From Candidatus Tayloriibacteriota bacterium (GTDB lineage: Bacteria; Patescibacteriota; Minisyncoccia; Phycocordibacterales; CAIRYW01): a DNA stretch of 64,000 bases. The notes beneath the pieces were generated by a model. The model did no database searches, had not been told where the DNA came from, and saw only the letters and a program-made list of their open reading frames with translations. Positions within the stretch are counted from its first letter, which is position 1. Each line of letters begins with the position of its first letter. The DNA lies in assembly GCA_028286725.1 (NCBI GenBank), contig JAQBQZ010000009.1:1408-65407 (forward strand), in the 5' to 3' direction. Positions 10,519 to 44,245 of the stretch are shown piece after piece. Made by a program: the position numbers and the translations under genes.

Positions 10519-13500
10519 TTATTTTTGACTCGCTTTCAACATTGCATTTATGTATGACCTAGTGACGAGGCCGAAGTATCCAGCCGGAGGATTTATCCTG
10601 TGAGATTTTTGGAATTTTGCAAGCGCGGCTTTTGTCGCAGCACCAAATTTATTTGTTTCCTTTCCTTTTGATCCTGCTCCAGTTTTTGCGATAGTATATC
10701 CAGTTGCATTGAGGAATCTCTGAAGAGCCAGTACTTCTGTATTCGTATCCCCGAACTGTAATACTTTTGTGAAGGTAAAGCGAGATGCTTTGAGATTAAG
10801 AAGTGTTTTTGCAGGAGTTGTAGTAGTTGCCGCTGCTGTTGTTGCCACAGCTACACTTTGTGAATTATTCGCTTGCATAGTAAGGAAGTTAAATACTCCT
10901 CCACCTCCGCCGCCAGTTGAAATAATTGGTGTGTATGCAGTTCCGAAGATTGCAAAGTCTGAGAAGTTTGAAGTCTCGCAAGTAACCGTTCGCGCACCTG
11001 TATTTACAGAACAACTGGAAAGCGGATACCACGCAGATCCATCATATCTGTAGATTGAGAGTGTTGAAGGATTGATATTTATAATATCGCTTGGAGAATA
11101 TGAAAGCGTCACAGTGATTGGATGATCGAATGTTGAAATAACATCAGTATCGTTCACAAGCGCCTTGAGGTTGTAAACTGTTCCAACAAAATTCTGACCG
11201 CTCGGAGTTCCTGCACTTCCCACAAAACTTAATGTGTTTAATTTCTTTATTTGGAATGTTGCAGACGTTGTTGCGGATGTGAAATTATTTGGAACACTAA
11301 TATTCATGCTATCAACACTGAAGCTACCGCCTGATCCAACATTAATAGAATTAGAATCACTTGCGACCACAGCCGCGTTGCCCGTACATCCAGTCGTTGT
11401 GAAGGTACTGTCATTCGACTCCCCAGTGTGCGACAACTCATCAGTTGAAGCTACTTTATAATGGTAGATACTACAAGCGACTAATCCTGAAATATTTATA
11501 CTGTGACTTGTCACACGAGTTACTACATCTGTTTCTGCTGTTGTTCGAGAATAATTATAAGTTGGTCCGAAAGAAACTTGGGATGACGCATCGACGTTTG
11601 TTGTCCAACTGATTGTTGCAGCATTGCTTGCTGGAGTTGCCGATAGTCCACTTATTTGTGGTACAGAAACACCGTTACCATTTCCAATGAGTGTGACACA
11701 ACTTCCATCATCTACATTTGCAGACGGATCGTATTCTTCATAACCAGCGTCTGTACAGCCAAGTACATCATATGTACAAGAACTATCATCAACGTTTGCA
11801 GATGAATTGTAGTTTCTTGCAGAAGGGTCTGTGCAACCAGGAACCTTTGGTGTCACGCAACTTCCATCATCAGTATTAGCGGCCCCACTGTACTCCAGAT
11901 ACGCTTCATTCATACACCCAAGAATCACAAGAGTTGAACAACTTCCATCATCAACAGTCGCCGCTGAATTATATTCAGTGTAACCAGAATCTGTACAACC
12001 TAGAATATCTGGGGGGATATAATTGAACGTTTGCTGTGTCGTCTGTGGTGTTCCAGATTCAAAATCTGGCGAAGAAGATCTAAGATAGATAGTTACTGCA
12101 CCGTTTGAATCTGGCTGTGGTATATCACTACCATTAACCGCACAATTTGCAGAATGCCAAGTGTTATTATCGTAACTATACTCACAAGTATCTGGAGAGA
12201 AATTACCCCAATTTACTGTTGCCCCCGTCCAATTAACTATATTTTGATTGTGAGTCGGAGCAGTAATATCCATATAAACACAGAATCCATCATCTATATT
12301 TGCACTAGAGTTATAATTTATCGCCACAGGATCAGTACATCCATACACATCATAAGTACAAGAGCCGTCGTCTGTTGTTGCTGATGGGTTGTAATTATTG
12401 GCAAAACTATCAGTACAACCAGAAACTACGAACTCACAAGAAGCATCGTCAGTATTTGCAGATGAATCATAGTTGTTTGCAGAAGAATCAGTACAACCAA
12501 ATACTTTTAATGTCAAACAAGTTGCATTATCTATTGTTGCTGCAGCATTATATTCAACATATGAACTATCAGTACAACCAGAAATATCATAAGTACAAGA
12601 AGCATCATTCGTATTAGCCATATTATTGTAATTGTTTGCAGTTGAATCTGTGCAACCTAAAATATACCCAAGATAATCCACATTACCGGACACTGTCCCT
12701 CCTATAGGATTTGGTGTGGGATAGTAGACATTAACATTTCCATTAATATCACCATGATTTTGAGCAGAATTATTAAACTCTACAACCGATGCGGTCACTG
12801 ATCCTAAATTTTGACTGTCGTCATTGAATATTACAGAGTTTGTCGCAATAATACTTACTCTAATGACCGCCCCATTTGAGAATGTAGCTTGATTCACAGT
12901 TGGTGTTGCCCCGCTATTAGAATTTACGGCCGCAGATATGTAGACTGTGCTTGAATTGTTTGGCAAGACCGTCGCAGGAATAACAAAACTTGCATCTCCC
13001 CACCAGTTACCTAGATTATTCCAATCGTTATCCACCGCTCCATTAAAATACAACCCAACAACATCGTAAGTACAGGAACCATCATCTGTATTTGCGGAAG
13101 AGTTATAGTTATTTGCGGTACCGTCTATACAACCAAAAGCCACTGCGACACAAGAACCGTCATCTCTATTGGCAAGTGCATCGTAGTTGAATGCGGTCGA
13201 ATCTGTACATCCCATATTATACAGACAGCTTCCATCATCTATGGTTGCAGCAGGATCGTAGCTAGTAGAAACCGGATCAGTACATCCTAGAACATCGTTT
13301 GAACATGACCCATCGTCAACAGTTGCACTTGAATTATAATTTAAGTAAGCAGAATCAGTACACCCGAGCACATCATAAGTACATGATCCATCATCTACAG
13401 TAGCAGTAGAATCGTAATTACTTGCAGAGCTATCGGTACAGCCAGAAATATCATATGTAAAATTTACACTCGCGCTTGTTTTGTTAAAAGCACCTGCGAA

Positions 13501-16500
13501 TGATTGATCTGTTGATCTTATATAAAGAGTGATATTGCCGGTCGTGTCTGGCGCTCCAATATCGGATCCCCCCAAACTACAGTCTGTTGCAATCCAGCTT
13601 GAATTGTCATAACTGTAAGCGCATTCAGTAGGCCCATAAATACCCCAGTCTACAATTGCACCTGCCCAAGTTGCGGACGTAAGGGCATAATCAGTTACAG
13701 GTTGAGTTATATTTACAAAATAGCAAGATCCGTCATCTATATTTGCAGCTCCGTTGTAGTTTAATGCACGCCCATCTGTACATCCAGAAACATCATAAGT
13801 ACAAGAACCATCATCTGTATTTGCAGAAGAATCATAGTTGTTTGCAGAAGAATCCATACATCCCAAAACAACAGCCACACATGATCCATCATCTACATTC
13901 GCAGCAGAGTTGTAATTAAATGCTGAAGGATCTGTACAGCCAAGTACATCATAAGTACAAGAACCATCATCAGAGTTTGCAGAAGAGTTGTAATTATTAG
14001 CAGTAGTATCTGTACAGCCAGATGTTCCCTGACAACTATAATCGCAGCCTGAATCCACATTTGCACTTGGGTCATAATTACAAGCATTAGAATCTGTACA
14101 TCCGACTACATCATATGAACACGATGCATCATCTACAGTAGCGCTCGGATCATAGTTAGTAGCGGCACTATCAGTACATCCGTAAACAGGTGAGTAAGAG
14201 AAATTAACCTGCGCAAAGTAATTATTTGAGGCTCTTATATAGAGAGTATTAGATCCTATTTGAGGCTCAACAAAATCAGATCCATTAGAACCACAATTCG
14301 ATGTATACCAACTTGTATTATCATAACTATATTCACATACACCAGGTCCACCAGATACATATACACCCCAATTAACTGTTGCGCCGCCTCCCCAAGTGCT
14401 CATTATAGTATCACCCTCTAATGGATTATTGATTTGAACACGGTAACAACTTCCATCATCATTATTTGCAGAAGAGTTGTAGTTTATTGCATTACCATCT
14501 GTACACCCTGATACAGTATATGTACAAGAACCGTCGTCAGAGTTTGCCGAAGAATTGTAGTTGTTTGCCATATTGTCTGTACATCCTGTAACGGTGTAAG
14601 TACAAGAACCGTCGTCGGTATTTGCTGAAGAATTATAGTTATTGGCAGACGGATCAGTACAACCAGAGACATTATAGGTACATGATCCGTTGTCATGCGT
14701 AGCATTTGAATCATAATTGCTTGCAGATGAATCCATACAGCCTTCATTATATGTACAACCACCACTGTCTACGTTTGCTGATATATTATAATTGTTGGCT
14801 TGGTTGTCAGTACATCCAGAAATATTAAAATCACAACTTCCATCATCGTAGTTTGCTGATGAGTTGTAATTATTTGCACCTTGAGTAGTGCATCCATAAA
14901 AGAGGCATGAACCATCATCAGAGTTTGCAGATGGATTATAATTATTCGCACTCGAATTCGTACATCCAGGAACAGTATACGCACAACTTCCGTCGTTATA
15001 ATTTGCTCCCGAATTGTAATTGTTTGCAGTGGTGTCAGTACATCCATAGAAGAGACAAGACCCGTCATCTGTATTTGCAGATGAATTGTAGTTATTAGCA
15101 CTTCCATTCATACATCCATTAACAGTATATGTACAAGAACCATCATCAGTATTCGCTGATGCGTTGTAGTTATTAGCACTTCCATTTGTACAACCAAATG
15201 ATTTTGCTACGCAAGAACCGTCATCATTAGTTGCAGATGAATTATAATTATACGCGTTAGAATCTGTACAACCATTTACGTTATGGCAACTGTAATCACA
15301 ACTACCAGAAGATCCGTAATTACATGCTGTACCGTCAGTACATGTAGTATTATTTTGGCAACTGTAGTCACAGCCTGAATTTATATTTGCACTCGAATTA
15401 TAATTACATGCACCAGAATCCATACAACCGTAAGTATCATAAGTACAAGAACCATCACTTATGGTCGCGGATGAATTATAGTTGTTTGCAGAATTATCTG
15501 TACACCCATATGTATCATAAGTACAAGAACCGTCGTCTTGAGTTGCTCCCGAGTTGTAGTTGTTTGCAGAACCTGTTGTACAGCCATATATAGTATTAGA
15601 AACATTTACACTTATAGCATCAGAAACTGATGAATTCCCTGCAACATCTCTTGCCACCACATCTATATAATAGACTCCATTTGAGACAGTAGTAGAATCC
15701 CAATTCAAATCGTAAGGTTCAGAAGTTATCTCTGAGCCTAAATCACTAAAATTACTGCCATCTGTACTCACTCGAAATTGTACACCTGCAATAATTCCAT
15801 TATCGGTCACATCTGCACTCAGATATACCGAAGATCCGTTCACACCCGAACCATTTGTTGGAGACGAAATAGTGGCACTTGGAGCAGACATATCTGTCGG
15901 TTGATAAAATGTTCCATCTGTACCATAGGATCCTGATGATCCCGTACCACCTGTCGATCCTGGATTACCAGGAGTTCCCGATGATCCATTCTGACCAGTT
16001 GCACCTTGAGCACCATCAATTCCACAGACAACATTTTCAGGATCACTATAATCACATCCATGTACACCCCCTCGTCCACCTTGTCCGCCTGGACCACCAT
16101 TAGCACTTCCTCCAGCGCCTCCTTGTCCACCTGCTCCTGGAGCACCTGCGTAACCTCCAGTTAAATTTTGACCGCCGATAGTTGAACCTTCATCAAGATT
16201 AATATTTCCTGAGTTTCCTCCAGCTCCGCCATTGCCTCCATTACCACCTGCTCCTCCATCACCAGCAGGGCTTCCACTAGTACCGTCTTGCCCAGGACTT
16301 CCATCACCACCATTACAATTTGTATTTGGATCACAATCAGTTCCAGGAGCTCCATCGCTACCCGCCACCCCATCTGCACTTGTCGCATCAGAACCATTTG
16401 CCCCCATTCCACCATTTCCTCCCGCACCCCCATATGTAGAAACGGTACCTGTAACTTTTGAATGATTTGCCAAAGTAACATTACCTCCATTTCCTCCGTA

Positions 16501-17001
16501 ATCTCCGGAAGCACCGTCGCCACTTGTTGCATTAGGTGCTGATGAACCAGTACCACCAGTAGCCACGATATTTCCATTAACTGTAGTATTCGAAATAGAG
16601 ACACTGCCAGCAGATCCCGCTCGAGTCGCTATGCCATCTGCACCACTCGCAATAATATCTCCGTTCAACGTAAGATTCGTTATTTGAACAGCGAGACCAT
16701 CGTCTCCATCACCCCTTAACACCCCTGAAGCATTTATATTTCCAGTTATTGTATGCCCCCCGCCATTTATAGTTATTCCAGAAGCAGTAATAATAAGACA
16801 ATCACCTCCGCCTCCAAAATCGCCAGTTATTTCATATGTTTCATTTGGCGTAGCAAGAGACTGACAGCCTCCAACAGTCGTATCTGCAAAAGTAGATTTC
16901 GGAAAAAGAAATGCCCCACCTAGAGAGAGAAAAGTGACAAGAAATATAAGCAAGGGCGAAGTAAAACTATATATTTTTTTGATCGTCCGTGACTTATACA
17001 T
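10519..17001 (-). CDS. giant surface protein carrying at least 45 tandem 28-aa Cys-pair repeats and a C-terminal PG_binding_1-like anchor
   Basis: 2160 aa with a signal/TM N-terminus (MYKSRTIKKIYSFTSPLLIF) and a Gly-rich region with DPENVVCG. Long arrays of G-C-T-D-x-x-A-x-N-Y-N-x-x-A-x-x-D-D-G-S-C-x-Y units are interrupted by three roughly 90-aa CEYSYDN modules. An FN3-like module and a C-terminal LQRFLNATGY...FGAATKAALAKFQ...GYFGL PG-binding-like domain follow. Confidence 0.85.
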   Translation of the reverse strand: MYKSRTIKKIYSFTSPLLIFLVTFLSLGGAFLFPKSTFADTTVGGCQSLATPNETYEITGDFGGGGDCLIITASGITINGGGHTITGNINASGVLRGDGDDGLAVQITNLTLNGDIIASGADGIATRAGSAGSVSISNTTVNGNIVATGGTGSSAPNATSGDGASGDYGGNGGNVTLANHSKVTGTVSTYGGAGGNGGMGANGSDATSADGVAGSDGAPGTDCDPNTNCNGGDGSPGQDGTSGSPAGDGGAGGNGGNGGAGGNSGNINLDEGSTIGGQNLTGGYAGAPGAGGQGGAGGSANGGPGGQGGRGGVHGCDYSDPENVVCGIDGAQGATGQNGSSGTPGNPGSTGGTGSSGSYGTDGTFYQPTDMSAPSATISSPTNGSGVNGSSVYLSADVTDNGIIAGVQFRVSTDGSNFSDLGSEITSEPYDLNWDSTTVSNGVYYIDVVARDVAGNSSVSDAISVNVSNTIYGCTTGSANNYNSGATQDDGSCTYDTYGCTDNSANNYNSSATISDGSCTYDTYGCMDSGACNYNSSANINSGCDYSCQNNTTCTDGTACNYGSSGSCDYSCHNVNGCTDSNAYNYNSSATNDDGSCVAKSFGCTNGSANNYNASANTDDGSCTYTVNGCMNGSANNYNSSANTDDGSCLFYGCTDTTANNYNSGANYNDGSCAYTVPGCTNSSANNYNPSANSDDGSCLFYGCTTQGANNYNSSANYDDGSCDFNISGCTDNQANNYNISANVDSGGCTYNEGCMDSSASNYDSNATHDNGSCTYNVSGCTDPSANNYNSSANTDDGSCTYTVTGCTDNMANNYNSSANSDDGSCTYTVSGCTDGNAINYNSSANNDDGSCYRVQINNPLEGDTIMSTWGGGATVNWGVYVSGGPGVCEYSYDNTSWYTSNCGSNGSDFVEPQIGSNTLYIRASNNYFAQVNFSYSPVYGCTDSAATNYDPSATVDDASCSYDVVGCTDSNACNYDPSANVDSGCDYSCQGTSGCTDTTANNYNSSANSDDGSCTYDVLGCTDPSAFNYNSAANVDDGSCVAVVLGCMDSSANNYDSSANTDDGSCTYDVSGCTDGRALNYNGAANIDDGSCYFVNITQPVTDYALTSATWAGAIVDWGIYGPTECAYSYDNSSWIATDCSLGGSDIGAPDTTGNITLYIRSTDQSFAGAFNKTSASVNFTYDISGCTDSSASNYDSTATVDDGSCTYDVLGCTDSAYLNYNSSATVDDGSCSNDVLGCTDPVSTSYDPAATIDDGSCLYNMGCTDSTAFNYDALANRDDGSCVAVAFGCIDGTANNYNSSANTDDGSCTYDVVGLYFNGAVDNDWNNLGNWWGDASFVIPATVLPNNSSTVYISAAVNSNSGATPTVNQATFSNGAVIRVSIIATNSVIFNDDSQNLGSVTASVVEFNNSAQNHGDINGNVNVYYPTPNPIGGTVSGNVDYLGYILGCTDSTANNYNNMANTNDASCTYDISGCTDSSYVEYNAAATIDNATCLTLKVFGCTDSSANNYDSSANTDDASCEFVVSGCTDSFANNYNPSATTDDGSCTYDVYGCTDPVAINYNSSANIDDGFCVYMDITAPTHNQNIVNWTGATVNWGNFSPDTCEYSYDNNTWHSANCAVNGSDIPQPDSNGAVTIYLRSSSPDFESGTPQTTQQTFNYIPPDILGCTDSGYTEYNSAATVDDGSCSTLVILGCMNEAYLEYSGAANTDDGSCVTPKVPGCTDPSARNYNSSANVDDSSCTYDVLGCTDAGYEEYDPSANVDDGSCVTLIGNGNGVSVPQISGLSATPASNAATISWTTNVDASSQVSFGPTYNYSRTTAETDVVTRVTSHSINISGLVACSIYHYKVASTDELSHTGESNDSTFTTTGCTGNAAVVASDSNSINVGSGGSFSVDSMNISVPNNFTSATTSATFQIKKLNTLSFVGSAGTPSGQNFVGTVYNLKALVNDTDVISTFDHPITVTLSYSPSDIININPSTLSIYRYDGSAWYPLSSCSVNTGARTVTCETSNFSDFAIFGTAYTPIISTGGGGGGVFNFLTMQANNSQSVAVATTAAATTTTPAKTLLNLKASRFTFTKVLQFGDTNTEVLALQRFLNATGYTIAKTGAGSKGKETNKFGAATKAALAKFQKSHRINPPAGYFGLVTRSYINAMLKASQK

Positions 17002-24593: not shown

Positions 24594-24674
24594 GCCCGGG
24601 TGACGAAATGGTAAACGTACTCGACTCAAAATCGAGCGCCGCAAGGCTTGGGAGTTCAAGTCTCCCCCCGGGCA
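24594..24674 (+). tRNA. tRNA-Leu (anticodon CAA), long variable arm
   Basis: Acceptor GCCCGGG/CCCGGGC, anticodon stem-loop CTCGA-CTCAAAA-TCGAG, variable arm CGCCGCAAGGCTTG and T-loop GGAGTTCAAGTCTCC. Confidence 0.8.
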
Positions 24675-24729
24675 CAAAATACAAAAAACAGAGAAATAAT
24701 TTCTCTGTTTTTTGTATTTTGTGCCCGGG
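24667..24729. repeat. 63-bp perfect palindrome overlapping the tRNA-Leu(CAA) 3' end
   Basis: CCCGGGCACAAAATACAAAAAACAGAGAAAT / ATTTCTCTGTTTTTTGTATTTTGTGCCCGGG. It is followed by the short hairpin GAAAGTGCtaaacGCACTTTC and an inverted T-arm copy TGGGAGACTTGAA. Confidence 0.85.
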
Positions 24730-25099
24730 AGAAAGTGCTAAACGCACTTTCGTGGGAGACTTGAAAGGCGCAGGTATATTTCTTGTAGAAACAAGAAATA
24801 CCGAGCCGGGGTCGAGGAAATTTTGATTCGACGGAATCAAAATTATCCGTGACCAAGTCCCTCTCCACCTCTACCTCTACCTGTAAGTCTTAAATCCTAA
24901 ATGATACAATACAACCCTTTCCCCCCCACCCTCGCTATATCCCCCATCTGTGCTACACTTGCTACCTTATCCACTAATCACAAAAAACATGGACGAAACA
25001 ACTACAACAACAGCTACTCCAGTAGTAGCAGAAGAAGAAACTACAGTTCCTACAGAACCTACAACACCTGCACCAGCAGCTGATGAAGTAACTGCATAA

Positions 25100-26088: not shown

Positions 26089-26245
26089 CTTTCCTTACAG
26101 GAACTGATCATGCATAAATTTCTACTGAAATTTTGCTCGACCCCGACTCGCGTCTTCGCGCTCTGCCTCTGAATTCTTCTAAGTATTCAGAATTCAGCAC
26201 CTTTTGGATCGAGTACTATCTCAAAAGATCTTGCAAAGCTCCACG
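26089..26245. repeat. copy R4 of a dispersed hairpin repeat family (inverted orientation, with about 95-nt nested insertion)
   Basis: Shares TTCCTTACAGGAAC...CACCTTTTGGATCGAGTACTATCTCAAAAGATCTTGCAAAGCTCC with copies at 28417, 39611 and 45988. The insertion itself carries GAATTCAG inverted repeats. Confidence 0.7.
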
Positions 26246-26949
26246 TATTCGCTTTTCACCTCGCTTGTTGGAATAACAACAACGCAGGTCCCCCGAAGGA
26301 AAACTGCGTTGCAGGCTGCTGGTGCTAACAAAACATTTTTTTCATGCCATTTTCGACTCAAAGAGCGAATGGTGGGCAGGATCAAAATGATCAATCAGAT
26401 CAGCGAGGGTGACACCGTATTTTGACAGGTGAAGCTTATCAAGCAAATCGACGAGCAAGAGCTCGCCAAGAGACTTCACAAGGCTTGGCCTGTTTTCGGA
26501 CGTTAAGAGCGATTCCATGTGTTGTTGGTAGCAGTCTGTAATTATTCACACTATTTGAATAATGTCAATAGTATATAAATGACAATGGCGCAGGTCCCCT
26601 GGTTGGAGGAGCCTGCGCCATATTTATCCATGACCTTTTACCACCGTGGTTTGTACTTCTGGGACCCAGGGCGTGCCTGTGGGCTACAGTGTCTCGCAGT
26701 GCGATCCACTTTAGGATTGGTGGCACCGATTGCCGCCAAAGATTGGGGGCATTTCAGTAAGCCTCGCTCATGCAGCCATTGCGCGGCTGCTTGAAAACCA
26801 GGTGATTTAAGATGATTGATGGGAGGAGCAGTGTTCATGTCAGGTGTTGTTGGTAACCGATATATATTATACATATTTATGTACAAATGTCAATATCAGA
26901 CCATTATTACCTAGATTAAATAGCCATATTCTGCTAGAATGCACTGCAT

Positions 26950-27020
26950 TGGGCGATTAGTTTAGTGGTAGAACAAGGCACTCCAAACGCCTAGGTGTAG
27001 GTTCGATTCCTACATCGCCC
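26950..27020 (+). tRNA. tRNA-Trp (anticodon CCA)
   Basis: Acceptor GGGCGAT/ATCGCCC, anticodon loop CTCCAAA and T-loop GGTTCGATTCC. Confidence 0.75.
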
Positions 27021-27204
27021 GCAGAAGGAGCGAAGCGACGACAAGGTTGATAGCAAGCAAACTGCTTTGCTTGCGTGTAGGAATCGAAAGGCTTTTTATT
27101 ATTTAATCGACTGCAAGGAGATTAAATTAAAAAGCACCCGCGACGGTAGTCGAGATTTCCTACATCGCCCGCAAATAATTTTTCAATTTTGATATAACGT
27201 ATCT

Positions 27205-27759
27205 ATGTCTGAACAATTAGAAATGTTAGAGGTGGTAGATGGGCTGGATAACATGATCGGTCTTGAAACTCGTAAAAAAATTCACAAGGACGGACTTCTT
27301 CATCGTGAAATACACATATTTTTTATAACTCCAAAAGGAGAAATCATCTTTCAACATAGAGCAAAAGACAAGGATACTTACCCTGATAAACTGGATGCGA
27401 CTGTGGCAGGACACGTTGAACCAAATATGTCTTACGAAGAAACTGCTATTAAAGAAACAAAAGAAGAGACTGGACTTGATATAAATTCAAAGGATTTAAT
27501 TGTGCTAGAAAAAATGAACCTTCGAGAAGTGGATGAGGCAACTGGACTAATCAACAATACCGTCCGTGTACAATATGCTTATTTATACAAGGGATTGGTT
27601 GAGGATCTAATTGTGGAAGAAGGTAAAGCTATTGGGTTTGAGCCATGGAATATGGATACTCTTTTTACACTTTCTAACAAGGATAAGAATAGATTTAAAC
27701 CCATCGTCATATCCAATAGATTTCTTCTTTTGTTTAAAAAGGCAAAGGACTTAATTTAA
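27205..27759 (+). CDS. NUDIX hydrolase, isopentenyl-diphosphate isomerase (type 1)-like
   Basis: DGLLHREIHIFF...QHRAKDK...PDKLDATVAGHVEPNMSYEETAIKETKEETG. This is a Nudix box arranged like IDI (HRAFS...CGHP...E...RR...EElG). Confidence 0.5.
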   Translation: MSEQLEMLEVVDGLDNMIGLETRKKIHKDGLLHREIHIFFITPKGEIIFQHRAKDKDTYPDKLDATVAGHVEPNMSYEETAIKETKEETGLDINSKDLIVLEKMNLREVDEATGLINNTVRVQYAYLYKGLVEDLIVEEGKAIGFEPWNMDTLFTLSNKDKNRFKPIVISNRFLLLFKKAKDLI

Positions 27760-27765
27760 CCCAAA

Positions 27766-27798
27766 AGAAAAAACCACCAAAAGGTGGTTTTTTCTTTT
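27766..27798. terminator. bidirectional terminator (NUDIX gene and rpmG)
   Basis: AAAAAACCACCaaaaGGTGGTTTTTT. Confidence 0.75.
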
Positions 27799-27802
27799 GA
27801 AA

Positions 27803-27958
27803 TTATTTCTTCGCTTCTTTGAAAGTGATGTGCTTTCGGAGTTTCTTTGAGAATTTCTTGAGCTCAATCTTTCTCTGGACACCCTTTTTGTTCTTTCGAG
27901 AGTAGTATACCTCGCCTGTTTCTTTGTTTTTTAATATAAGTAGATTATCCTGTGACAT
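27803..27958 (-). CDS. rpmG: 50S ribosomal protein L33
   Basis: 51-aa ORF MSQDNLLILKNKETGEVYYSRKNKKGVQRKIELKKFSKKLRKHITFKEAKK. It matches the L33 pattern (Y-T-KNK-N...LELKKY...LRKH...KE-K). It is absent from the ORF track because it is under 60 aa. Confidence 0.8.
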   Translation of the reverse strand: MSQDNLLILKNKETGEVYYSRKNKKGVQRKIELKKFSKKLRKHITFKEAKK

Positions 27959-28067
27959 ATATGTATTTATTTAATGTCTGATGATTATAGCTCAATATAT
28001 CCAAAAAAGCAATTCGAGCCTTAATTGTTTACTCACCCCCCTTTTTGTGATATTCTCTATCGATAAT

Positions 28068-28150
28068 GCGTAGGTGGTAGAGCGGTCAATTACAAGAGAC
28101 TGTAAATCTCTCGCCTTCGGGCTACACAGGTTCGAATCCTGTCCTACGCA
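28068..28150 (+). tRNA. tRNA-Tyr (anticodon GTA), long variable arm
   Basis: Acceptor GCGTAGG/CCTACGC, anticodon stem-loop AGAGA-CTGTAAA-TCTCT and T-loop GGTTCGAATCC. Confidence 0.75.
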
Positions 28151-28209
28151 CAAAATATGAAAAAACCTGAAGCAAGTTTGCTTCAGGTTTTTTCATATTT
28201 TGTGCGTAG
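28144..28209. repeat. 66-bp perfect palindrome overlapping the tRNA-Tyr 3' end
   Basis: CTACGCACAAAATATGAAAAAACCTGAAGCAAG / TTGCTTCAGGTTTTTTCATATTTTGTGCGTAG. Followed by GAAAGTGCtaaatGCACTTTT and GGACAGGATTTGAAGCC (inverted T-arm-like). Two more degenerate direct copies of the tRNA 3' half lie at 28311-28330 and 28380-28399. Confidence 0.85.
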
Positions 28210-28416
28210 AGAAAGTGCTAAATGCACTTTTGGACAGGATTTGAAGCCCGATTGAGCATAATTTGTGAGGTATCGAAACAAATTATCCAATCGGGATATT
28301 GACCCTGTAAGGGTCGAATATCCTGTCTGATCGAACGGAGAGTAAGATATTTGTGATCAAATACTATCAATCTAGTCGAGGTCGAAACTCCTGTCCTGAT
28401 TTTTACTTCTTCTCTT

Positions 28417-28470
28417 CCTTACAGGAACAGTACACCTTTTGGATTGACTACAATCTCAAAAGGTCTTGCG
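28417..28470. repeat. copy R1 of the dispersed hairpin repeat family (abuts/overlaps the clpB 3' end)
   Basis: CCTTACAGGAACAGTACACCTTTTGGATTGACTACAATCTCAAAAGGTCTTGCGC is the reverse complement of the core seen at 45988-46057 and 39611-39675. Confidence 0.75.
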
Positions 28471-31170
28471 CTCGGGTCCCGATCCCGAGCTCACCTTCCC
28501 ATTCCTTGAGAAAAATTCCTCTCCAATAATATTCCCCTTTCTCCCCTTCTTCACATCAAAAACGAGTTCTTTGTTTTTGAGATCTACATTTACAACCCCT
28601 CCTTTTATAACACTCTGAGCAATGATCATATTCGCTACAGGGTTTAGAATCTTGTTTTGAATAAGTCGCTTTAATGGTCGCGCACCATACTGTGGGTTAT
28701 ACCCTTCCTTTGCAAGATAGTCGAGGGCTGCCACAGAGAGCGTCAGTCCAATCTCTTTTGCCGCAAGTCTTTCTTTGATAAGTCCCACTTGAATATCTAC
28801 GATCTTTCGAATGTTTTCGTTTGAAAGAATATCAAAGAGGATAATATCATCGAGTCGGTTCAAGAATTCTGGTCGGAAATAATCCTTGAGAGATTCCATC
28901 ACCTTCGCTTTTGCATCGTCATAGTTTTGCTTGTCAGTTTCATCCATTGCAAATCCAATCTTCTGCATTCGATCAATATATTGCGATCCAATGTTTGAAG
29001 TCAAAATGATCACAGTATTTTTGAAGTTCACTGTTCGCCCTTTTGAATCTGTAAGTCGCCCATTGTCCAAGACCTGAAGAAGCACATTGAACACTTCTGG
29101 ATGTGCCTTCTCGATCTCATCAAAAAGAATGACTGAGTAAGGTCTGTGTCGGACGATCTCTGTAATACTTCCCCCTTCATCATGGCCCACATAACCCGGT
29201 GGCGCACCAAGAATTTTTGACACTGCATGCTTCTCCATATATTCAGACATATCTACGCGCACGAGCGCTTTGTCATCATCAAACATAAATTCAGCGAGTG
29301 CTTTTGTGAGCTCTGTCTTTCCAACTCCAGTTGGTCCCAAAAAGAGGAACGATCCTATTGGTTTATTCGGATCAGAAATACCCGCTCGATTTCTTTTGAT
29401 TGTATCAGAAATACTTTTGACCGCCTTGTTCTGTCCGATAATTCTCTTCTCAAGATCCTCTTCCATTCGCTGAAGCTTCTCCGCTTCTGCTTCAAGCATT
29501 CTGTCTACTGGGATACCCGTCCACTTTGCAACGATCTCTGCAACATCAGATGCAGTCACTTCTTCTTTGAGAATTCTTCGTGAGCTCTGGAGCTTCTTTA
29601 GTTTTTTACTTTTGATATCAAGTTCTTTTTCAAGAGTTGGGATCTTTCCATATCTAATCTCTGCAGCCTTTGTGAGGTCTGCTCTAATCTCGGCGCTTTC
29701 AGCTTCAACACGAAGATCATCAAGTTCTTTTTTGACCTCTTTTATTTCTCCCAAAATTTCCTTTTCATTTTTCCATTTGAGTTCGAGTTCATTTGTCGAT
29801 TCTTTAAGATTTCCAATTTCTTCATCGATCTTTAATACTCGAGCCTTAACATTCTTGTCAGTTTCAATATCTTTTTTGAGTGCTTCTCGTTCAATCTCAA
29901 GCCGCATGATCTGTCGGTGTGCAATATCGAGCGCTTCTGGCTTGTTTTCAAGTGCGATCTTCAAATGCGATGCAGACTCATCAATGAGGTCCACCGCTTT
30001 GTCAGGAAGGAATCTGTCAGTAATATATCGGCTTGAGAGATTCACCGCAGAGACGATTGCATCATCAGTGATCCGTACACCATGATAGAGTTCATATCGA
30101 TCTCGAAGTCCTCGAAGGATTGCGATCGCATCTTCGATAGTCGGCTCTGAAACGAACACTGGCTGGAATCGTCGTGTCAGCGCTGGATCTTTTTCAATAT
30201 GCTTTTGGTATTCACGAAGCGTTGTTGCTCCCACAGCTCGAAGCTCTCCACGCGCAAGCGCAGGCTTCAGCATATTTGATGCATCGAGCGATCCTTCTGC
30301 AGCTCCTGCTCCAACAATAGTGTGGATCTCATCGATAAAAAGAATTACCTTTCCATCACTTTTTTCAATATCTTTCAAAATGTTTTTGAGTCGTTCTTCG
30401 AATTCTCCTCGGTATTTTGTTCCTGCAACAAGTGAGCCCAAATCGAGTGACACGAGCTCCTTATCTTTGAGACTTTCTGGCACATCACCCTGAGCGATTC
30501 GTCCTGCGAGACCTTCGATGATCGCAGTCTTTCCTACTCCCGCCTCTCCAATAAGGATTGGATTGTTCTTTGTTCGTCTTGAGAGAATTTGCACAACTCG
30601 TGCGATCTCAGTATCTCGTCCGATCACTGGATCAAGCTTGTTTTCTTTTGCGAGCTTTGTGAGATTACGAGTGTACTTTGTGAGTGCTTTCATTTTCTTT
30701 GGATGCTGAACATCTGTGACAGTACCGAGCTTTAATTCCTGAACAACACGAAGAACAGATTCTTTTGTGATCTTGAATCTTTGAAGCATTTCTTTTGAAG
30801 ATGATGGGACTTCAGTAGATGCAATAAAGAGGTGCTCTGTTCCGATGAATTCGTCTTTGAGAGACGCTGCGATTTTGCCTGATACTTCGATGATCTGCGC
30901 GAGTTCTGGAGTGAGGTAGATCTGGTATGAAGGAGAAAGCACCTGAGCAGACTCAGGACCTTCGAGAGAATCAAGGAGTGAATCGGTGAGAAGGATAGTA
31001 TCAATCTCGAGTCGTTCGAGGATCGACAAAACCATACTCTCGTCCTGAAGGATGAGAGATGCGAGCAGGTGAAGAGGACTTACATGATTCTGTCCTCGCT
31101 CAATAGCAAGCTCGTGAGCTTTTCGGATGGCTTCTTTTGCTTTTGTGGTGAAATTTCCAAATGGAGGCAT
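28456..31170 (-). CDS. clpB: ATP-dependent chaperone ClpB
   Basis: 904 aa with a Clp N-domain, two AAA+ modules (GEAGVGKTA and GPTGVGKTE Walker A motifs) and a long middle coiled-coil domain. Confidence 0.92.
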
Positions 31171-31955: not shown

Positions 31956-31996
31956 GAGCTTGAGTTGGGTGGAGTTGTTGGAGTTACGCAAGCAGT

Positions 31997-32130
31997 TTGT
32001 TTCTGCGAGCGTGAAAATGAACCACATAAATGGACCATTTTCACGCTCGCTTTTCTCATTTTATCCTTATTTTGTTTGACGAATAGCTTTCAAAGAACCT
32101 TACTTAACTAGGATAAGTATACACCATATT
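31997..32130. repeat. about 130-bp module (copy 1) containing a perfect 14-bp inverted repeat. It is repeated at 33431-33535 upstream of a second secreted-protein gene.
   Basis: The hairpin is GCGAGCGTGAAAATgaaccacataaatggaccATTTTCACGCTCGC. The shared block GCTTTCAAAGAACCTTACTTAACTAGGATAAGTATACACCAT follows, then an AAAGTCAATACCCC... GC hairpin. Confidence 0.85.
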
Positions 32131-32237
32131 TAGGTAAAAGTCAATACCCCTGAATTTCATTGAAATTCAGGGGTATATAAAAAAAGAGACTCGCTAGGTG
32201 GGTACCATGCGAGTCTCTTCGTAGTTGAAGCCAGATG

Positions 32238-33368
32238 TTAGTTCGGACGGATGTTGAACCGGGATGACCCAGACGACGCAGACTGGCGTTTCGCTCCTGC
32301 CTGTGCTGCAAGTGCTGCTTGGATGTCTGTCCGATCCTGAGCCTTGAGCTTACCATTTGCGGCGAACCGCGTAAGGTATTCCCGCTGAGGATCAGTCAGA
32401 TTTCCATCCAAAGTGGCCTGGAAGGCAGCAATGCTGTTTTCGACAGCCTTGATGTCTTGAGGGCTTGCACCCCCTGCAGCACGTGCTGCGTCCAAATCAT
32501 TCTGACCCTTCTGAACGAAACTCCGCATAGCTGTGCGCCATTGAGACTCATTGCCGTTGTCGGCAACAGCAAGACCTTCGGGCTGGCGGCTAAAGATAGA
32601 GCTTCCCGGATATTGCTTCCGTTCTGCTGCATCAGTAACGGCTTGGATTGAAGGCACTGCGACAGCGACTGGAACTGGCTGTTGTTGGCGAAGCACAAGA
32701 GCTTTTTCGAGCTCAAGAACTTTTGCTTCAGAAGCTTCCAGCTTGCCCTTGGCTTCATCACGCTCCTTGCGGGCGGAATCGGCTTGGGAACTGTAGAGAT
32801 CAGCATTTTTCGCTTTGTCGGCGAGAGACTCCAGCTGTTTCGCATGAGTCTCAGCTTCACTCAGCTTCTTAGCAGTGTCAACCTTCTCCTTGATGGCGTC
32901 GGTTGTGGACTTGTCGGCAAGCGTGAGCTTGCTTTCCAATTCCTGCTTCTTGCTCTCGGCAGCCTTGATATCAGCCTCGAGCTTCTGCATCTTCTTTCCG
33001 TCCTCGATGCGGCCCTCGTTGAGAGAGGCCACAGTCTGCTGATACCCCAAATTTTCTTTGGAGAGCTTCTCCATCTTGGAGTTGCCGTTGCCGCCGAAGA
33101 TGAGGCAGAACAGGAGGATAAGGAGTGCAGCAGCTTCGGCCAAGATGATGATGCCCTTGGTGCGACCTCTTTGGGCCGCGTTCCGAGTGGCACAGTCTTT
33201 GCCTTCAGTGCGAGCTTCTTCCACCTCATCGAGGTGAATCTGGATCACATTCTCCGGATCCTTGCTGACCGCTTCGATGAGCAGCGTACTGCTGTCGAAC
33301 GGACCGGGAGCCGGTGGTGGTGTGTTGGTTGGAGCTGGAGTGCGTGTTGGTGGGGTGTGTGTGTTCAT
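32238..33368 (-). CDS. membrane-anchored coiled-coil protein (376 aa) in GC-rich island
   Basis: Pro-rich N-terminus and one TM (GIIILAEAAALLILLFCLIFGG). A long Lys/Glu/Ala-rich coiled-coil follows (KLEADIKAAESKKQELESKL...). GC-rich codons. Plus-strand ORFs overlapping it are judged spurious. Confidence 0.5.
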   Translation of the reverse strand: MNTHTPPTRTPAPTNTPPPAPGPFDSSTLLIEAVSKDPENVIQIHLDEVEEARTEGKDCATRNAAQRGRTKGIIILAEAAALLILLFCLIFGGNGNSKMEKLSKENLGYQQTVASLNEGRIEDGKKMQKLEADIKAAESKKQELESKLTLADKSTTDAIKEKVDTAKKLSEAETHAKQLESLADKAKNADLYSSQADSARKERDEAKGKLEASEAKVLELEKALVLRQQQPVPVAVAVPSIQAVTDAAERKQYPGSSIFSRQPEGLAVADNGNESQWRTAMRSFVQKGQNDLDAARAAGGASPQDIKAVENSIAAFQATLDGNLTDPQREYLTRFAANGKLKAQDRTDIQAALAAQAGAKRQSASSGSSRFNIRPN

Positions 33369-33430
33369 ACGGGTGGGATGTGTTGCATTTTGACGGAATT
33401 GACATCACGGATCACAAAGGGGTTTTGTCC

Positions 33431-33535
33431 TTGCGAGCGTGAAAATGAACCACATAAATGGACCATTTTCACGCTCGCAGTACTAACATTTGGCTTTCAA
33501 AGAACCTTACTTAACTAGGATAAGTATACACCATT
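33431..33535. repeat. second copy of the 14-bp-IR leader/promoter module
   Basis: The 46-nt hairpin and the GCTTTCAAAGAACCTTACTTAACTAGGATAAGTATACACCAT block are identical to those at 31997-32130. The AAAGTCAATACCCCTCCTACCGcacGGTAGGAGGGGT hairpin follows. Confidence 0.85.
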
Positions 33536-33606
33536 TTATCACAAAAGTCAATACCCCTCCTACCGCACGGTAGGAGGGGTATTTTGACCTATTTTATCTC
33601 TATTTC

Positions 33607-34995
33607 TTAAGCTATAATCCCCTTTCGAGCAAGATTATCTCTCTTGAACTTTGCGATCATTTCTCGCTGGGTCATACCGAGCTTGGCTGCTTTCTTCTTC
33701 AAGAATACCCACGCCATAAATGCTGACCAAAGTGTCATACCGAGTACGAAAAGGATCATTTTGAGGTTCTCTCCTACTCCTGTATATGGAATATCACTAA
33801 GATATACTCCAGAGGCAAGTGTTCCGTTGTTTGGTGTATTACCACCGTTACTTACGAGAGTAATATTGCCGTTGTTTCCACCTACATATACATTACATGT
33901 CTGTGTGACTGACTGACCACCTCCATCAGTTATTCGTACTGTCGCAGACTTTGTTCCACTCGTGCTAAACGATTGAGTTACAACTGATCCGTTACCATAT
34001 ACATCTCCTGACCACTGATAGTTATAGTTACTACCATTTCCGCCGTTTGCATTAGCTGTGAATGTAGCAACATTATTACCAGATACACTTGCAGAACAGT
34101 ATCCAGAAAGTGATTGGTTGTAGTTGTTGTTAACCTGAGTACTACAATTTCGTGTGATTGACTGACCGTTTGAAGTGATAGTTACAGTTGCAGATTTTGT
34201 TCCTCCGTTGTAGTAAGTATTTGAAACACTAGAACCATTACCATATGCATCTCCTGACCAACTATATGTATATCCTCCATTTCCACCTGTAGCATTAGCT
34301 GTCCAAGTAACAGTCTGGTTTGTCCCATATGATCCACTTGCAGTACATGAACCCTCCAAAGTATTTGTATTTTGCGCTACCTGGTTTGTAACTACGTTAC
34401 AGTTTCCCTGTCCTGCACAAGTGTTGTTCGTATTAGTGACCGTACTTGTATAGTTATAGTTAGTATTAGTTTTATTGCTTAAGAATGAGAGTGAAGAATT
34501 TCCTCCGTAACCACCACCGTTATTGTATCCACTATATCCACCTCCAATTCCTCCATATGAGTATGGCATTACGTAACCAGAAGAGTATCCGTATGATGAT
34601 GACTGAGGATATCCATATGAAGAGTATCCGTATGAAGGAGATGAGTAACCAGTCGAATAAGGTTGACTGTAAGAATCAGAATATCCATAGTTACTTGAAG
34701 GATAGTAGTCGTAACCAGTATCGTACCCATAATTACTTGAAGGGTAATAGTCGTAAGACGAATCAGCCGCATAGTTACTTGATGGATAGTAGTCGTATGA
34801 TGAACCACTTGAGTAATTACTTGAAGGGTAATAGTCGTAAGACGAATCAGCCGCATAGTTACTTGATGGATAGTAGTCGTATGAACTTCCTTCATCTGCC
34901 ATTACAGCAGTCGGAACTACCAAGATCGCCATAGAAGCAACAACAAAAAGTGCTGTTATTACCCTATATTTGATTGTGTTTATAATGTTTTGCAT
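33607..34995 (-). CDS. secreted low-complexity surface protein with PKD-like domains and a conserved C-terminal IPYTG-TM-basic tail module
   Basis: Signal peptide, then 5x SSYDYYPSSNY tandem repeats. There are two YxYxWSGDxYGNGS...GTKSATVxIT PKD-like modules. The C-terminus SGVYLSDIPYTGVGENLKMILFVLGMTLWSAFMAWVFLKKKAAK...AKFKRDNLARKGIIA is paralogous to that of 44439..45653. Confidence 0.7.
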   Translation of the reverse strand: MQNIINTIKYRVITALFVVASMAILVVPTAVMADEGSSYDYYPSSNYAADSSYDYYPSSNYSSGSSYDYYPSSNYAADSSYDYYPSSNYGYDTGYDYYPSSNYGYSDSYSQPYSTGYSSPSYGYSSYGYPQSSSYGYSSGYVMPYSYGGIGGGYSGYNNGGGYGGNSSLSFLSNKTNTNYNYTSTVTNTNNTCAGQGNCNVVTNQVAQNTNTLEGSCTASGSYGTNQTVTWTANATGGNGGYTYSWSGDAYGNGSSVSNTYYNGGTKSATVTITSNGQSITRNCSTQVNNNYNQSLSGYCSASVSGNNVATFTANANGGNGSNYNYQWSGDVYGNGSVVTQSFSTSGTKSATVRITDGGGQSVTQTCNVYVGGNNGNITLVSNGGNTPNNGTLASGVYLSDIPYTGVGENLKMILFVLGMTLWSAFMAWVFLKKKAAKLGMTQREMIAKFKRDNLARKGIIA

Positions 34996-39537: not shown

Positions 39538-39610
39538 TTTAAAATCTCTACGAATTCAGGCTTCGCGGGGATTTTTTATTTCCAACAAGCGAGGTGAAAA
39601 GCGAATACAT

Positions 39611-39675
39611 GGAGCTTTGCAAGACCTTTTGAGATCGTACTCGATCCAAAAGGTGTACAGTTCCTGTAAGGAAAG
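39611..39675. repeat. copy R3 of the dispersed hairpin repeat family
   Basis: GGAGCTTTGCAAGACCTTTTGAGATCGTACTCGATCCAAAAGGTGTACAGTTCCTGTAAGGAAAG. Confidence 0.7.
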
Positions 39676-39880
39676 CGTGGACGAGTACTCTCGTACACAG
39701 CGTCCGAGTCGCACTACAAGAGTACTTCTTATTTTCTAACTCACTTCGTTCATAAGAAAATAATGTCGAGTTGGAATATAGGGTTAATACCCGAAGCGAT
39801 GCCGAAGGTCAAAAGTATGAGCGGAGCGAATTTACCTCGTGAGCTCTGCTCCGAGGTCCTTTATATGATATAATTTTGAA

Positions 39881-40952: not shown

Positions 40953-41035
40953 GCCCGGGTGATGTAATGGTAGCCATAGGGGACTTAAAATCCCCAGGTC
41001 GCAAGACCGTGCGGGTTCGAGTCCCGCCCCGGGCA
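40953..41035 (+). tRNA. tRNA-Leu (anticodon TAA), long variable arm
   Basis: Acceptor GCCCGGG/CCCGGGC, anticodon stem-loop GGGGA-CTTAAAA-TCCCC, variable arm GGTCGCAAGACC and T-loop GGTTCGAGTCCCGC. Confidence 0.8.
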
Positions 41036-41090
41036 CAAAATACAAAAGACTTCAGAAATTTTTCTGAAGTCTTTTGTATTTTGTGCCCGG
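41029..41090. repeat. 62-bp perfect palindrome overlapping the tRNA-Leu(TAA) 3' end
   Basis: CCGGGCACAAAATACAAAAGACTTCAGAAA / TTTCTGAAGTCTTTTGTATTTTGTGCCCGG. Followed by GAAAGTGCtaaacaCACTTTC and GAGGCGGGACTCGAA (inverted T-arm copy). The arms share GGGCACAAAATACAAAA with the locus at 24667. Confidence 0.85.
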
Positions 41091-41286
41091 AGAAAGTGCT
41101 AAACACACTTTCGAGGCGGGACTCGAAAAGGTTCTCCCATATTTTTGAGAATGTAATCATTTGAGAAAATGGGAAACCTATACGACATTGTTTTCTTATG
41201 ACTGAAAGGAATTAGAAAACAAGAAGTACTCTTGTGGTGCTGCGGCTGTAAGCCGAGAGTTCCGGTAAGGACCGAGTTCCCGTCCC

Positions 41287-43002: not shown

Positions 43003-44025
43003 TTAAATATATTTTTTAATTAATTTTCTTGTTATATAAACATAATACCAAAATGGCTTCAATACGAGATCATAGAGTGCCAGATGGTGAACTACTTCCC
43101 CTCCAAACTTCTGTTTAAAGGAACTCAAGCCCTGCCATTTTTTGTTTTCTTCTCCGACCGACACTGCGCCAAAATTATAATATTTTGCACCCATATCTTT
43201 TGCCTTGAGCATCGCATTAAAATGCGCAAGATATGGAGCACAAAGATCTTTATGCAAATCAGAAGATGCTCCAAATACATAGTGCGCTACATCACCTACA
43301 ACAAACACAACATGTGAGGCGAGACGTTCATTTTCATAAAAAGCTTCGATCAAAAATCCTTTGCCTGTCTTTTCAAGTTCTTCAAAATATTATTTGAAGT
43401 AATCATTATTATGTAGTGCGAATCCTTTTAGAACAGAGGTCTGCTTCATAAGTTCCAAAAAAGCTGGGAGTTTTTTTGCAAGATCCTTATCTATAAGAAC
43501 CGTTTTTATTCCTTTCTTTTCTGCAAGACGAACTGAGTAGCGAGTCTTTGAATGCATTGCACTCAGGATCTCTTCAGGGGTACCACTTATCGCTGTATAC
43601 CACTCGTCACGAGGCTGGAAATACGCACCAACAATTGAAGGGGGTAAGGACTCTGTAAAATATTTTTTGAGTGGAATAGAATTATTTGAATCAATAAAAG
43701 TAAAATCCAGTCTTACAAATGCCACATTATTTTTCTTCGCCCACATTGTGAGCCCACTTTTAATAGATAAAATAATTTCTTCTGATACATTAGAGAGAAT
43801 CGGGCCGTAGGGAGCATACCAGTATGTGAGACTTCTGAAGAGCGGATATTCAACAATAAGAACAGAACCAATAACACTTTTGTCATTTAAGATTTGAAAG
43901 TTCTTTATATTCCTACTCATTCTTTTCTGGATCAGGCCATAGGCAAAAGTCTGAGTTAAAGGAATATTTTGACCATTTACTTCCACAAAATCTTTTTCGT
44001 TTGTAATCTCTTTGAGGTGTATCAT
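43003..44025 (-). pseudogene. FemAB-family (FemX/MurM-like) peptidoglycan bridge aminoacyltransferase interrupted by an in-frame TAA
   Basis: ORFs 43390..44025 (N part, ...MHSKTRYSVRLAEKKGIKT) and 43003..43353 (C part, ...GLSSFKQKFGGEVV) are in the same frame. They are separated by a single TAA at 43390-43392, and translation continues sensibly across it (YFEELEKTGKGFLIEAFYENE...). Confidence 0.6.
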
Positions 44026-44114: not shown

Positions 44115-44188
44115 GCGTCCATAGCTCAGCTGGTAGAGCAGCTCCCTCTTAAGGAGACGGTCGTAGGTTCGACTCCTACTGGACGCAC
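44115..44188 (+). tRNA. tRNA-Lys (anticodon CTT)
   Basis: Acceptor GCGTCCA/TGGACGC, D-arm GCTCAGCTGGTAGAGC, anticodon loop CTCTTAA and T-loop GGTTCGACTCC. The anticodon identity is less certain (G-A at the top of the anticodon stem). Confidence 0.6.
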
Positions 44189-44245
44189 AAATAAAGAAAA
44201 ACCTCAGCAGATATCTGCTGAGGTTTTTCTTTATTTGTGCGTCCA
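44182..44245. repeat. 64-bp perfect palindrome overlapping the tRNA-Lys 3' end
   Basis: GGACGCACAAATAAAGAAAAACCTCAGCAGAT / ATCTGCTGAGGTTTTTCTTTATTTGTGCGTCC. Followed by the hairpin CAAGCgcggggcactTGCTTG and TAGGAGTCGAAC, an exact inverted copy of the tRNA T-arm GTTCGACTCCTAC. Confidence 0.85.

Follow-up and report, generated by a model that had tools for sequence, protein, structure and literature searches.

Structured modules bounded by direct and inverted copies of tRNA 3' ends lie behind most tRNA genes in a stretch of a Paceibacteria chromosome

The 64,000-nt stretch of Candidatus Tayloriibacteriota contig JAQBQZ010000009.1 analyzed here (the window) is core chromosome of a member of the Paceibacteria (Parcubacteria; candidate phyla radiation, CPR), and its eight tRNA genes (ARAGORN, Rfam) raise the question of why the 3' end of a tRNA should be repeated a short distance behind the gene. 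Islands and prophages that enter tRNA genes by means of tyrosine integrases duplicate the tRNA 3' end as attachment (att) sites, with the T-loop as a sublocation of the exchange, and a first-pass annotation had read the repeats behind tRNA-Trp, tRNA-Tyr and tRNA-Leu(TAG) as decayed integrative elements or tRNA-targeting miniature elements. We found a module of 130-260 nt downstream of six of the eight tRNAs (Leu-CAA, Trp, Tyr, Leu-TAA, Lys and Leu-TAG), on the strand of the tRNA, in which copies of the tRNA's own 3' part, one inverted and one direct, flank a structured core; the two lacking a module are Cys, whose next tRNA is 52 nt on, and Gln, at the window edge. The modules sit 10-80 nt downstream of the tRNA genes and take up roughly 1.5 kb of the window. 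Their architecture is apparently undescribed, since no description of it turned up in literature searches.

Behind tRNA-Trp(CCA) (26951-27022, + strand; ARAGORN, Rfam), the exact 17-mer TTCCTACATCGCCCGCA has two copies in the window, at 27007-27023 and 27157-27173, where shuffled sequences average 0.01 matches, and an inverted T-arm copy between them (27076-27088) is complementary to 27002-27014 at 13 of 13 positions. Both features had been noticed in the first-pass annotation, with coordinates one base off. We refer to the tRNA 3' part, from T54 to the discriminator, as A, to its inverted copy as A' and to its direct copy as A2. The Trp module (27024-27173, + strand), delimited by fold scores and an alignment of its core type (type C), lacks a terminator hairpin and consists of a leader with a degenerate copy of the acceptor 5' strand (27024-27051), a junction hairpin with the loop AACUGCUU (27052-27075), A' as an inverted T-stem/T-loop copy (27076-27088), the core hairpin P2 (27089-27136), CCCGCGACGGUAGUCGAGA with the mini-hairpin P3 (27137-27155) and A2 (27156-27173). 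Its fold is more stable than expected both as RNA (z = -4.3) and as DNA (z = -5.1).

The same order of parts characterizes the other modules. After A, within the tRNA, there is usually a bidirectional terminator hairpin (T), followed by an inverted copy of the acceptor 3' strand, the junction hairpin, A' (T-stem 3' strand and T-loop in reverse complement), a core of two hairpins and A2, which repeats the T-loop and the 3' strands of T stem and acceptor in direct orientation and is sometimes continued by a copy of the trailer and terminator. The arms match the local tRNA, whereas the cores belong to a few shared, interchangeable types (A to E). A canonical bidirectional terminator precedes the majority of modules of types A, B and E, whereas type C modules have none between tRNA and module. 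Pairing of the arms on the tRNA-sense strand closes a three-way junction that re-creates the acceptor and T-stem helix of the tRNA. The junction hairpin, about 22 nt long and nearly identical at Leu-CAA, Tyr and Leu-TAA, occupies the point between acceptor and T stem from which the D and anticodon arms of a real tRNA branch off. Judged as a tRNA-like structure, a module therefore has an acceptor stem stacked on a T stem and a hairpin branching where the two meet, but no T-loop or elbow, the T-loop bases being paired or replaced by the core, and neither ARAGORN nor Rfam calls a tRNA there. At the gathering threshold Rfam 15 matched only tRNAs in the window, and at E values up to 10 it added only generic long-hairpin (miRNA-like) matches on the palindromes described below. 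The repeat-bounded segments (100-260 nt) contain no open reading frame (ORF).

Several of these modules extend the earlier observations. At tRNA-Leu(TAG) (45765-45847; with its module, 45765-46105, + strand) the exact 15-mer GAGTCTCCTCTCCAG lies within the tRNA at 45830-45844 and again at 46091-46105, and with an inverted copy at 45885-45899 this makes three matches in the window where 0.08 are expected. The direct repeat and a copy of the repeat 'R' enclosed by it (45962-46060) had been recognized before; the inverted copy had been missed. This module comprises a terminator (45847-45881), an uninterrupted 21-nt inverted tRNA-end copy (45882-45902), a type A core with the nested R copy (45903-46089; match to the type A covariance model R1 at 45890-46105) and A2 (46090-46105). 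Behind tRNA-Tyr(GTA) (28068-28151, + strand; ARAGORN, Rfam) the two degenerate direct copies reported earlier are likewise present, with indels, at 28314-28330 and 28382-28399, and here too an inverted copy (28232-28247, two mismatches) had escaped notice. The Tyr module (28144-28399, + strand) opens with a perfect palindrome of 32+32 nt (28144-28209) running from the tRNA end and trailer through a bidirectional terminator to the complements of trailer and acceptor, continues with the junction hairpin (28210-28231), A' (28232-28245), a type B core (28246-28315) and the first degenerate A2 (28314-28330), and ends in a truncated second unit with a type E core (28331-28381) and its own degenerate A2 (28382-28399).

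The pattern thus holds at the three tRNAs to which it had been confined, but the palindromes, and the same architecture behind tRNA-Leu(CAA), tRNA-Leu(TAA) and tRNA-Lys(CTT), had been overlooked. All three of these modules lie on the + strand. That of Leu(CAA) (24594-24869, tRNA 24594-24675) has a palindrome (24667-24729), junction hairpin (24730-24751), A' (24752-24765), type A core (24766-24853) and A2 (24854-24869), with an R1 match of 85.6 bits at 24753-24869; its A2 is closer to a Leu(TAG)-type arm than to the local tRNA. That of Leu(TAA) (40953-41286, tRNA 40953-41036) has a palindrome (41029-41090), junction hairpin (41091-41112), A' (41113-41127), composite core (41128-41272) and A2 (41273-41286), and that of Lys(CTT) (44115-44380, tRNA 44115-44188) a palindrome (44180-44245), junction hairpin (44246-44267), A' (44268-44279), type E core (44280-44361) and degenerate A2 (44362-44380). 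The perfect palindromes, with arms of 30-33 nt, each take in the final 8-9 nt of their tRNA (Leu(CAA), Tyr, Leu(TAA) or Lys) and run on through its terminator. Every perfect palindrome of at least 30 nt in the window adjoins a tRNA, whereas the terminators of protein genes have no such extension. Directly upstream of tRNA-Lys and divergent from it lies a gene of the FemAB family (43390-44025, - strand), which comprises aminoacyl-tRNA-dependent peptidoglycan transferases.

The cores are conserved in their base pairing. In the three-way junction of type A (Leu-CAA and Leu-TAG in the window), 20 of 30 pairs covary in a 13-sequence seed (RNAalifold), and the pair cells are paired in 92.6% of cases, compared with 64% for shuffled sequences and 35-48% after sliding of the partners; a near-invariant G.U pair is found in 39 of 47 sequences. 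Covariation extends to 17 of 29 pairs in type B (Tyr; ten sequences) and to 16 of 23 pairs in an alignment of 29 type C modules, in all of which the R..Y pair of the P3 hairpin is A-U or G-C. Counted on the tRNA-sense strand there are 55 G.U against 17 A.C in type A and 24 against 7 in type C, indicating that the tRNA-sense strand is the strand that folds. We conclude that the enclosed DNA is under selection for structure, and because its structures are conserved, covarying and strand-specific the enclosed segments are not decayed cargo.

To place the modules in a wider context we used 81 sources (about 280 tRNAs), the search for relatives reaching 6 kb either side of clpB; other sequences are cited below by L numbers. 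The window, which encodes ParB, MiaA, ClpB, IF2, RbfA, a Mur ligase, GyrA, FtsA, FtsZ, DprA and type IV secretion system (T4SS)-type pilins, has a ClpB that is 68-85% identical to those of 80 metagenome-assembled Paceibacteria genomes. Among the 246 tRNAs with 300 nt on both sides, an inverted 13-mer was matched at 12 of 13 positions or better 39 times downstream and never upstream, and a direct 16-mer at 14 of 16 or better 29 times, again only downstream. No direct copy is more than 350 nt away from its tRNA. Occupancy is patchy, amounting to about a quarter of the relatives' tRNAs (e.g., 23 of 61 tRNA-Tyr and 9 of 35 tRNA-Trp), and modules recur in dozens of Paceibacteria species, where they follow at least 18 tRNA species in all. 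The type A model gave 53 matches in the 1.0 Mb of these sources, and 46 of the best 50 have a tRNA of the same strand (Tyr, Lys, Trp, three Leu species or Cys) 9-300 nt upstream of them. Type C was traced in metagenomes with the 18-mer CCCGCGRCGGTAGYCGAG, whose matches in high-GC contigs are due to chance; in contigs below 56% GC, 31 of 42 matches fall within 300 nt behind a same-strand tRNA (Lys, four Arg, Pro, Ile, Asp, two Val, Asn, two Gly, Tyr and Gln), and the arms of these 31 modules match each local tRNA. Type C thus follows at least 13 tRNA species in metagenomes.

Comparison of these modules points to exchange of cores between tRNA loci. Within one contig, cores that are 100% identical are combined with differing arms behind Pro and Gly (L199) and behind Lys and Leu-TAA (L033), and the identity stops on both sides inside TCGA(A), a conserved part of the T-loop. 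Across 73 modules the arms would seem to behave as tRNA copies that decay independently of one another: of 511 cells compared, 424 were unchanged, while 49 had changed in A2 alone, 34 in A' alone and 4 in both arms. tRNA-Tyr is followed by different core types in different species. The presence/absence variation anticipated by the first-pass annotation is found between species: at one tRNA-Trp locus with shared flanks L079 is filled and L071 is empty. The filled allele has direct repeats of about 75 bp that comprise the tRNA 3' end, the terminator and 6 further nt; its two terminators are identical to that of the empty allele at 39 of 46 and 40 of 46 positions, so that neither stands out as the original. 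Tandem or truncated units occur at tRNA-Tyr of the window and in L020, L074 and L125, the last having two full tandem units with the most distal A copy as the most degenerate, and cores are nested in one another at 26091-26273 and 45962-46060. Upstream of the modules of L199 (tRNA-Pro) and L198 (tRNA-Ile) there is, between tRNA and module, an extra, longer partial tRNA copy (the whole T arm and acceptor 3' strand), preceded in L198 by an R-like element; these partial copies suggest earlier insertions at a point upstream of the T arm.

Copies without tRNA arms share the orientation of the tRNA-linked ones. Behind clpB, an R copy with a type-B-like core and an extra hairpin (28415-28495, - strand, in clpB sense) encodes the last 12 clpB codons and the TGA stop (28456-28495, - strand), whereas clpB ends otherwise in relatives (...SRKVAEEVK* in the closest). 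An orphan composite with no tRNA nearby (26091-26273, - strand; R1 match of 62.5 bits) has a type A core (26091-26181) nested in an R/type-B copy and lies, in sense orientation, behind two small minus-strand ORFs. A further orphan R/type-B copy, joined to a repeat unit that is common to the Leu(TAA) module (39580-39768, + strand), follows rbfA in the sense direction. Each of these armless copies is in the sense of its upstream gene.

On these grounds we tentatively favor the view that the elements are small recombining modules centered on the T-loop box, which enter with their own tRNA 3' end and fold on the tRNA-sense strand, a mechanism that we infer from their anatomy. They would be non-autonomous recombining units and not scars that large islands left behind. 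A unit that brings with it a copy of the tRNA 3' end, and usually a terminator of its own, would insert at the T-loop by a homologous or site-specific crossover, leaving the tRNA intact and displacing the previous 3' end downstream as A2, where it would then decay; repeated rounds could give tandem and truncated arrays. Because the core begins and ends within the T-loop box, which is palindromic and nearly universal (TTCGA/TCGAA), cores could be swapped between tRNA loci while the outer arms stay local. The A-T-A' hairpin and the core would fold when single-stranded, as transcript or as exposed sense-strand DNA, and selection would preserve that fold. If X stands for the tRNA end, this reading explains the order X-terminator-X'-core-X, the identical cores with local arms, the arrays, the nesting and the patchiness.

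This reading has parallels among known systems. Folded single-strand or Xer sites include the attP hairpin of CTX phage, integron attC sites and the pdif modules of Acinetobacter. By analogy, the modules may be compared with these in their order of site, spacer, inverted site, cargo and site, in a fold kept on one strand, and in being bounded by inversely oriented sites with no recombinase of their own. They differ in that the site is a tRNA T-loop/3' end instead of a dif or attC box and in that the cargo is non-coding, and GTTCGAA, judged by eye, does not fit the attC motif GTTRRRY. With tRNA-integrating islands they share a direct repeat of the tRNA 3' end starting in the T-loop, an incoming unit that brings a new 3' end and often a terminator while the tRNA stays intact, tandem accretion, and presence/absence between relatives. 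Unlike islands, they measure 0.1-0.26 kb instead of kilobases, lack an integrase, include an obligatory inverted tRNA-end copy and junction hairpin together with covarying, strand-specific cargo, and have direct repeats of varying length (14 to about 75 bp).

Nevertheless, a number of observations weigh against recombining modules. No recombinase, circular junction or excision product was seen. The covariation, and the sense orientation behind every upstream gene even where convergent neighbors lie within 400 bp, are explained no less well by a transcribed functional RNA, and any role given to the inverted copy and junction hairpin would be conjectural. In the window, A' is closer to the tRNA in sequence than A2 is, and in L074 decay has gone further in the middle A copy than in the distal one, contrary to a simple order with the newest copy nearest the tRNA. 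Where type A cores follow tRNA-Lys (L041, L076, L022, L058, L010, L020), their closing arms often bear no relation to the T-loop (e.g., UGUG...CACA), indicating that tRNA-derived arms are not obligatory for a type A core. The comparison of arm cells in 73 modules is a weak test, because the filter by which the arms were found favors tRNA-like ones. Finally, look-ups of exact proteins for strain-level presence or absence gave nothing beyond contigs of the sample itself, whose sequence is 100% identical to the window. Two such short-read contigs (L001 and L218; Logan, SRR13312974) end inside the Tyr palindrome, the Trp module and an R copy, showing that the modules are assembly breakpoints.

The main rival, possible but in our estimation rather unlikely, is a functional tRNA-trailer RNA that is transcribed with the tRNA or just after it and folds as a mimic of the acceptor/T-stem 'top half' in the service of the host. 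It might be a handle for 3'-end processing or stability, offer RNase P, RNase Z or RNase III a point of entry, or act on pre-tRNA maturation as a regulator or sponge, with arms that arose by local duplication and are kept tRNA-like by gene conversion or selection. Strong covariation with a one-strand G.U bias and a near-invariant G.U pair is what such an RNA would show, and the cores follow the sense of the upstream gene even where tRNA-Tyr (+) and clpB (-) converge. The position of the junction hairpin, exactly where acceptor and T stem meet, also speaks for this rival, as does the lack of a terminator between tRNA and module in type C, and the family is kept across species whose ClpB is just 68-85% identical. 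However, the canonical bidirectional terminator before most A, B and E modules means that transcription would need read-through, only about a quarter of the relatives' tRNAs are followed by a module, and copies are truncated, nested or in tandem, one of them overrunning a coding sequence. No compensatory change of the closing stem away from the tRNA sequence was seen, and with the T-loop paired or replaced the fold lacks the tRNA elbow, on which RNase P, RNase Z and the CCA-adding enzyme rely; nor is there an Rfam match. Known tRNA-like or tRNA-linked RNAs include the 3'ETS-leuZ sponge, the bacterial Y RNA YrlA, the tRNA-like domain of transfer-messenger RNA (tmRNA), viral tRNA-like structures and the box C/D guide in the archaeal tRNA-Trp intron. 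The modules resemble these in lying in or beside the tRNA transcript, in having an acceptor and T-stem helix and in being partly complementary to their own tRNA, but differ in having no T-loop or elbow, no family in Rfam 15 and no box C/D or H/ACA recognized by eye.

A less probable alternative is template switching during replication, in which a palindromic terminator and the TTCGAA hexamer yield the series X, X', X, hairpin repeats of the REP (repetitive extragenic palindromic) type settle centrally, and the arms have no function. The order X, spacer, X', cargo, X is indeed present with its junctions at two palindromes, the same cores occur without tRNA arms behind protein genes, and some type A cores have arms unrelated to the T-loop. 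Yet this process should leave coreless intermediates, and neither X-X' alone nor A'-A2 alone was found, the smallest credible gap between arms being about 49 nt; we therefore regard template switching as a minor rival. Nor would it account for a conserved junction hairpin at one fixed site in the inverted arm only, for perfect palindromes of at least 30 nt only beside tRNAs in the window, or for the tie to tRNAs of 46 of the best 50 type A matches. In small size, lack of coding sequence, multiple copies, hairpins, mosaic and nested structure, position in intergenic regions or 3' flanks and the breaking of assemblies, the modules do resemble REP sequences and bacterial interspersed mosaic elements (BIMEs) and miniature inverted-repeat transposable elements (MITEs) such as Correia, RUP, BOX and ERIC. 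Unlike in MITEs, their inverted arms differ from tRNA to tRNA, with only TCGA(A) common to all. TCGA(A) stands on both sides of the core, as a target duplication of a MITE might, but belongs to the T-loop copies, and the long direct repeats vary in length from 14 to 75 bp. Unlike REPs and MITEs, they are near-exclusive to tRNA 3' flanks, keep the sense orientation of the upstream gene and come with no transposase or REP-associated tyrosine transposase (RAYT) that we could see.

Least of all do we believe that they are tyrosine-integrase islands or prophages reduced by deletion to attL, attR and 120-250 bp of junk: the direct repeats do begin in the T-loop and restore an intact tRNA, and accretion-like tandem arrays and a filled/empty pair do occur, but the enclosed structured motifs are common to unrelated tRNAs and genomes, their size is tightly constrained, the inverted tRNA-end copy is always present, and an att scar explains neither that copy nor the junction hairpin. 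Larger, integrase-bearing elements at the same tRNAs, for which the first-pass annotation had proposed to search, were absent from the about 280 tRNAs in 81 sources, within the 6 kb covered on either side of clpB, where we found no integrase within a repeat-bounded segment and no integrase-sized or kilobase-scale insert. Its integration-like layout is nevertheless real, in that the tRNA 3' end is duplicated from the T-loop onward and tandem arrays exist, and 'tRNA-targeting miniature elements' is a fair description; 'decayed integrative elements' is not, given conserved structures and neither integrase nor kilobase insert. A Pfam scan that covered 36 of the longer ORFs of the window likewise gave no integrase or partner transposase, although a transposase may lie elsewhere in the genome. 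A motif scan of 1.3 Mb of Paceibacteria loci returned just two housekeeping-like Xer recombinases, neither of them in a repeat-bounded segment. These two Xer-like tyrosine recombinases (L133, about position 4965, and L155, about position 6858) each lie about 3.5 kb from a type C module, which may be coincidence.

Several further candidates were rejected. A retrocopy of a mature tRNA or a primer-binding site does not fit copies that lack CCA and that in L079 and L040 include an untranscribed-looking trailer and terminator. An inverted tRNA pseudogene (convergent duplicate) is contradicted by A2, whose strand order is that of a direct copy; A' is a true reverse complement, as the asymmetry of the T-loop, the sole identifying feature, indicates. 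The junction hairpin is not drawn from the local anticodon or D arm, given that the same hairpin (loop AACUGCUU or AGAAAGUGCUAAAYRCACUUU) is found at different tRNAs. Hammerhead and other small ribozymes, group II intron domain V and box C/D were dismissed on junction strands that do not fit by eye and on the absence of Rfam matches to them at E values up to 10. A phage origin was dropped after three scans of viral contigs gave chance matches in coding sequence plus one type A copy (L217, a contig of unclear nature). The TIGR-Tas guide arrays of the CPR were set aside, their architecture being different from that of the modules: they are regular 36-nt arrays with a Tas gene and no tRNA link shown (PMC12045711).

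Some other features of the window were recorded. Two tandem small ORFs (about 66 and 58 aa; 26500-26900, - strand), the longer without a Pfam match, are divergent from tRNA-Trp and are preceded by consensus-like promoters, TTGACA-16-TATAAT at 26893-26866 and another at 26568-26541, with the motif TACCAACAACAC after both. Two giant predicted surface proteins of 1353 and 2160 aa (6399-10460 and 10519-17001, both - strand) have Ig-like, collagen-like and peptidoglycan-binding domains, and the larger (10519-17001) contains more than 20 diverged 78-nt (26-aa) repeats. Blocks of 55 and 66 nt that are 91-95% identical recur about 1.4 kb apart (31996-32151 and 33424-33558), each with a hairpin with a 20-bp stem, and flank ORFs without a Pfam match (32238-33368 and 33607-34995); within the latter ORF (- strand), five tandem 42-nt repeats, two of them identical, occupy 34646-34884.

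Recombining modules remain the account that we tentatively prefer, and it is conceivable, if somewhat speculative, that they represent a new class of element in which a structured core is re-armed with the local tRNA 3' end and so carries both a copy and an anti-copy of it, acting either as recombinase-less modules that use folded single-strand T-loop sites or as tRNA-specific RNAs that pair with or mimic the tRNA 3' half in maturation or protection. CPR genomes are tiny, yet space is spent on these modules. If they are mobile, non-coding elements could colonize every tRNA gene without damage and without carrying a recombinase, and the modules would offer natural, tRNA-addressed insertion sites; if they are RNAs, they would constitute a large, unrecognized family of tRNA-linked structured RNAs in an unculturable lineage. 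Either way, the modules break short-read assemblies and can pass for the att scars of islands, and one copy has rewritten the C-terminus of ClpB.

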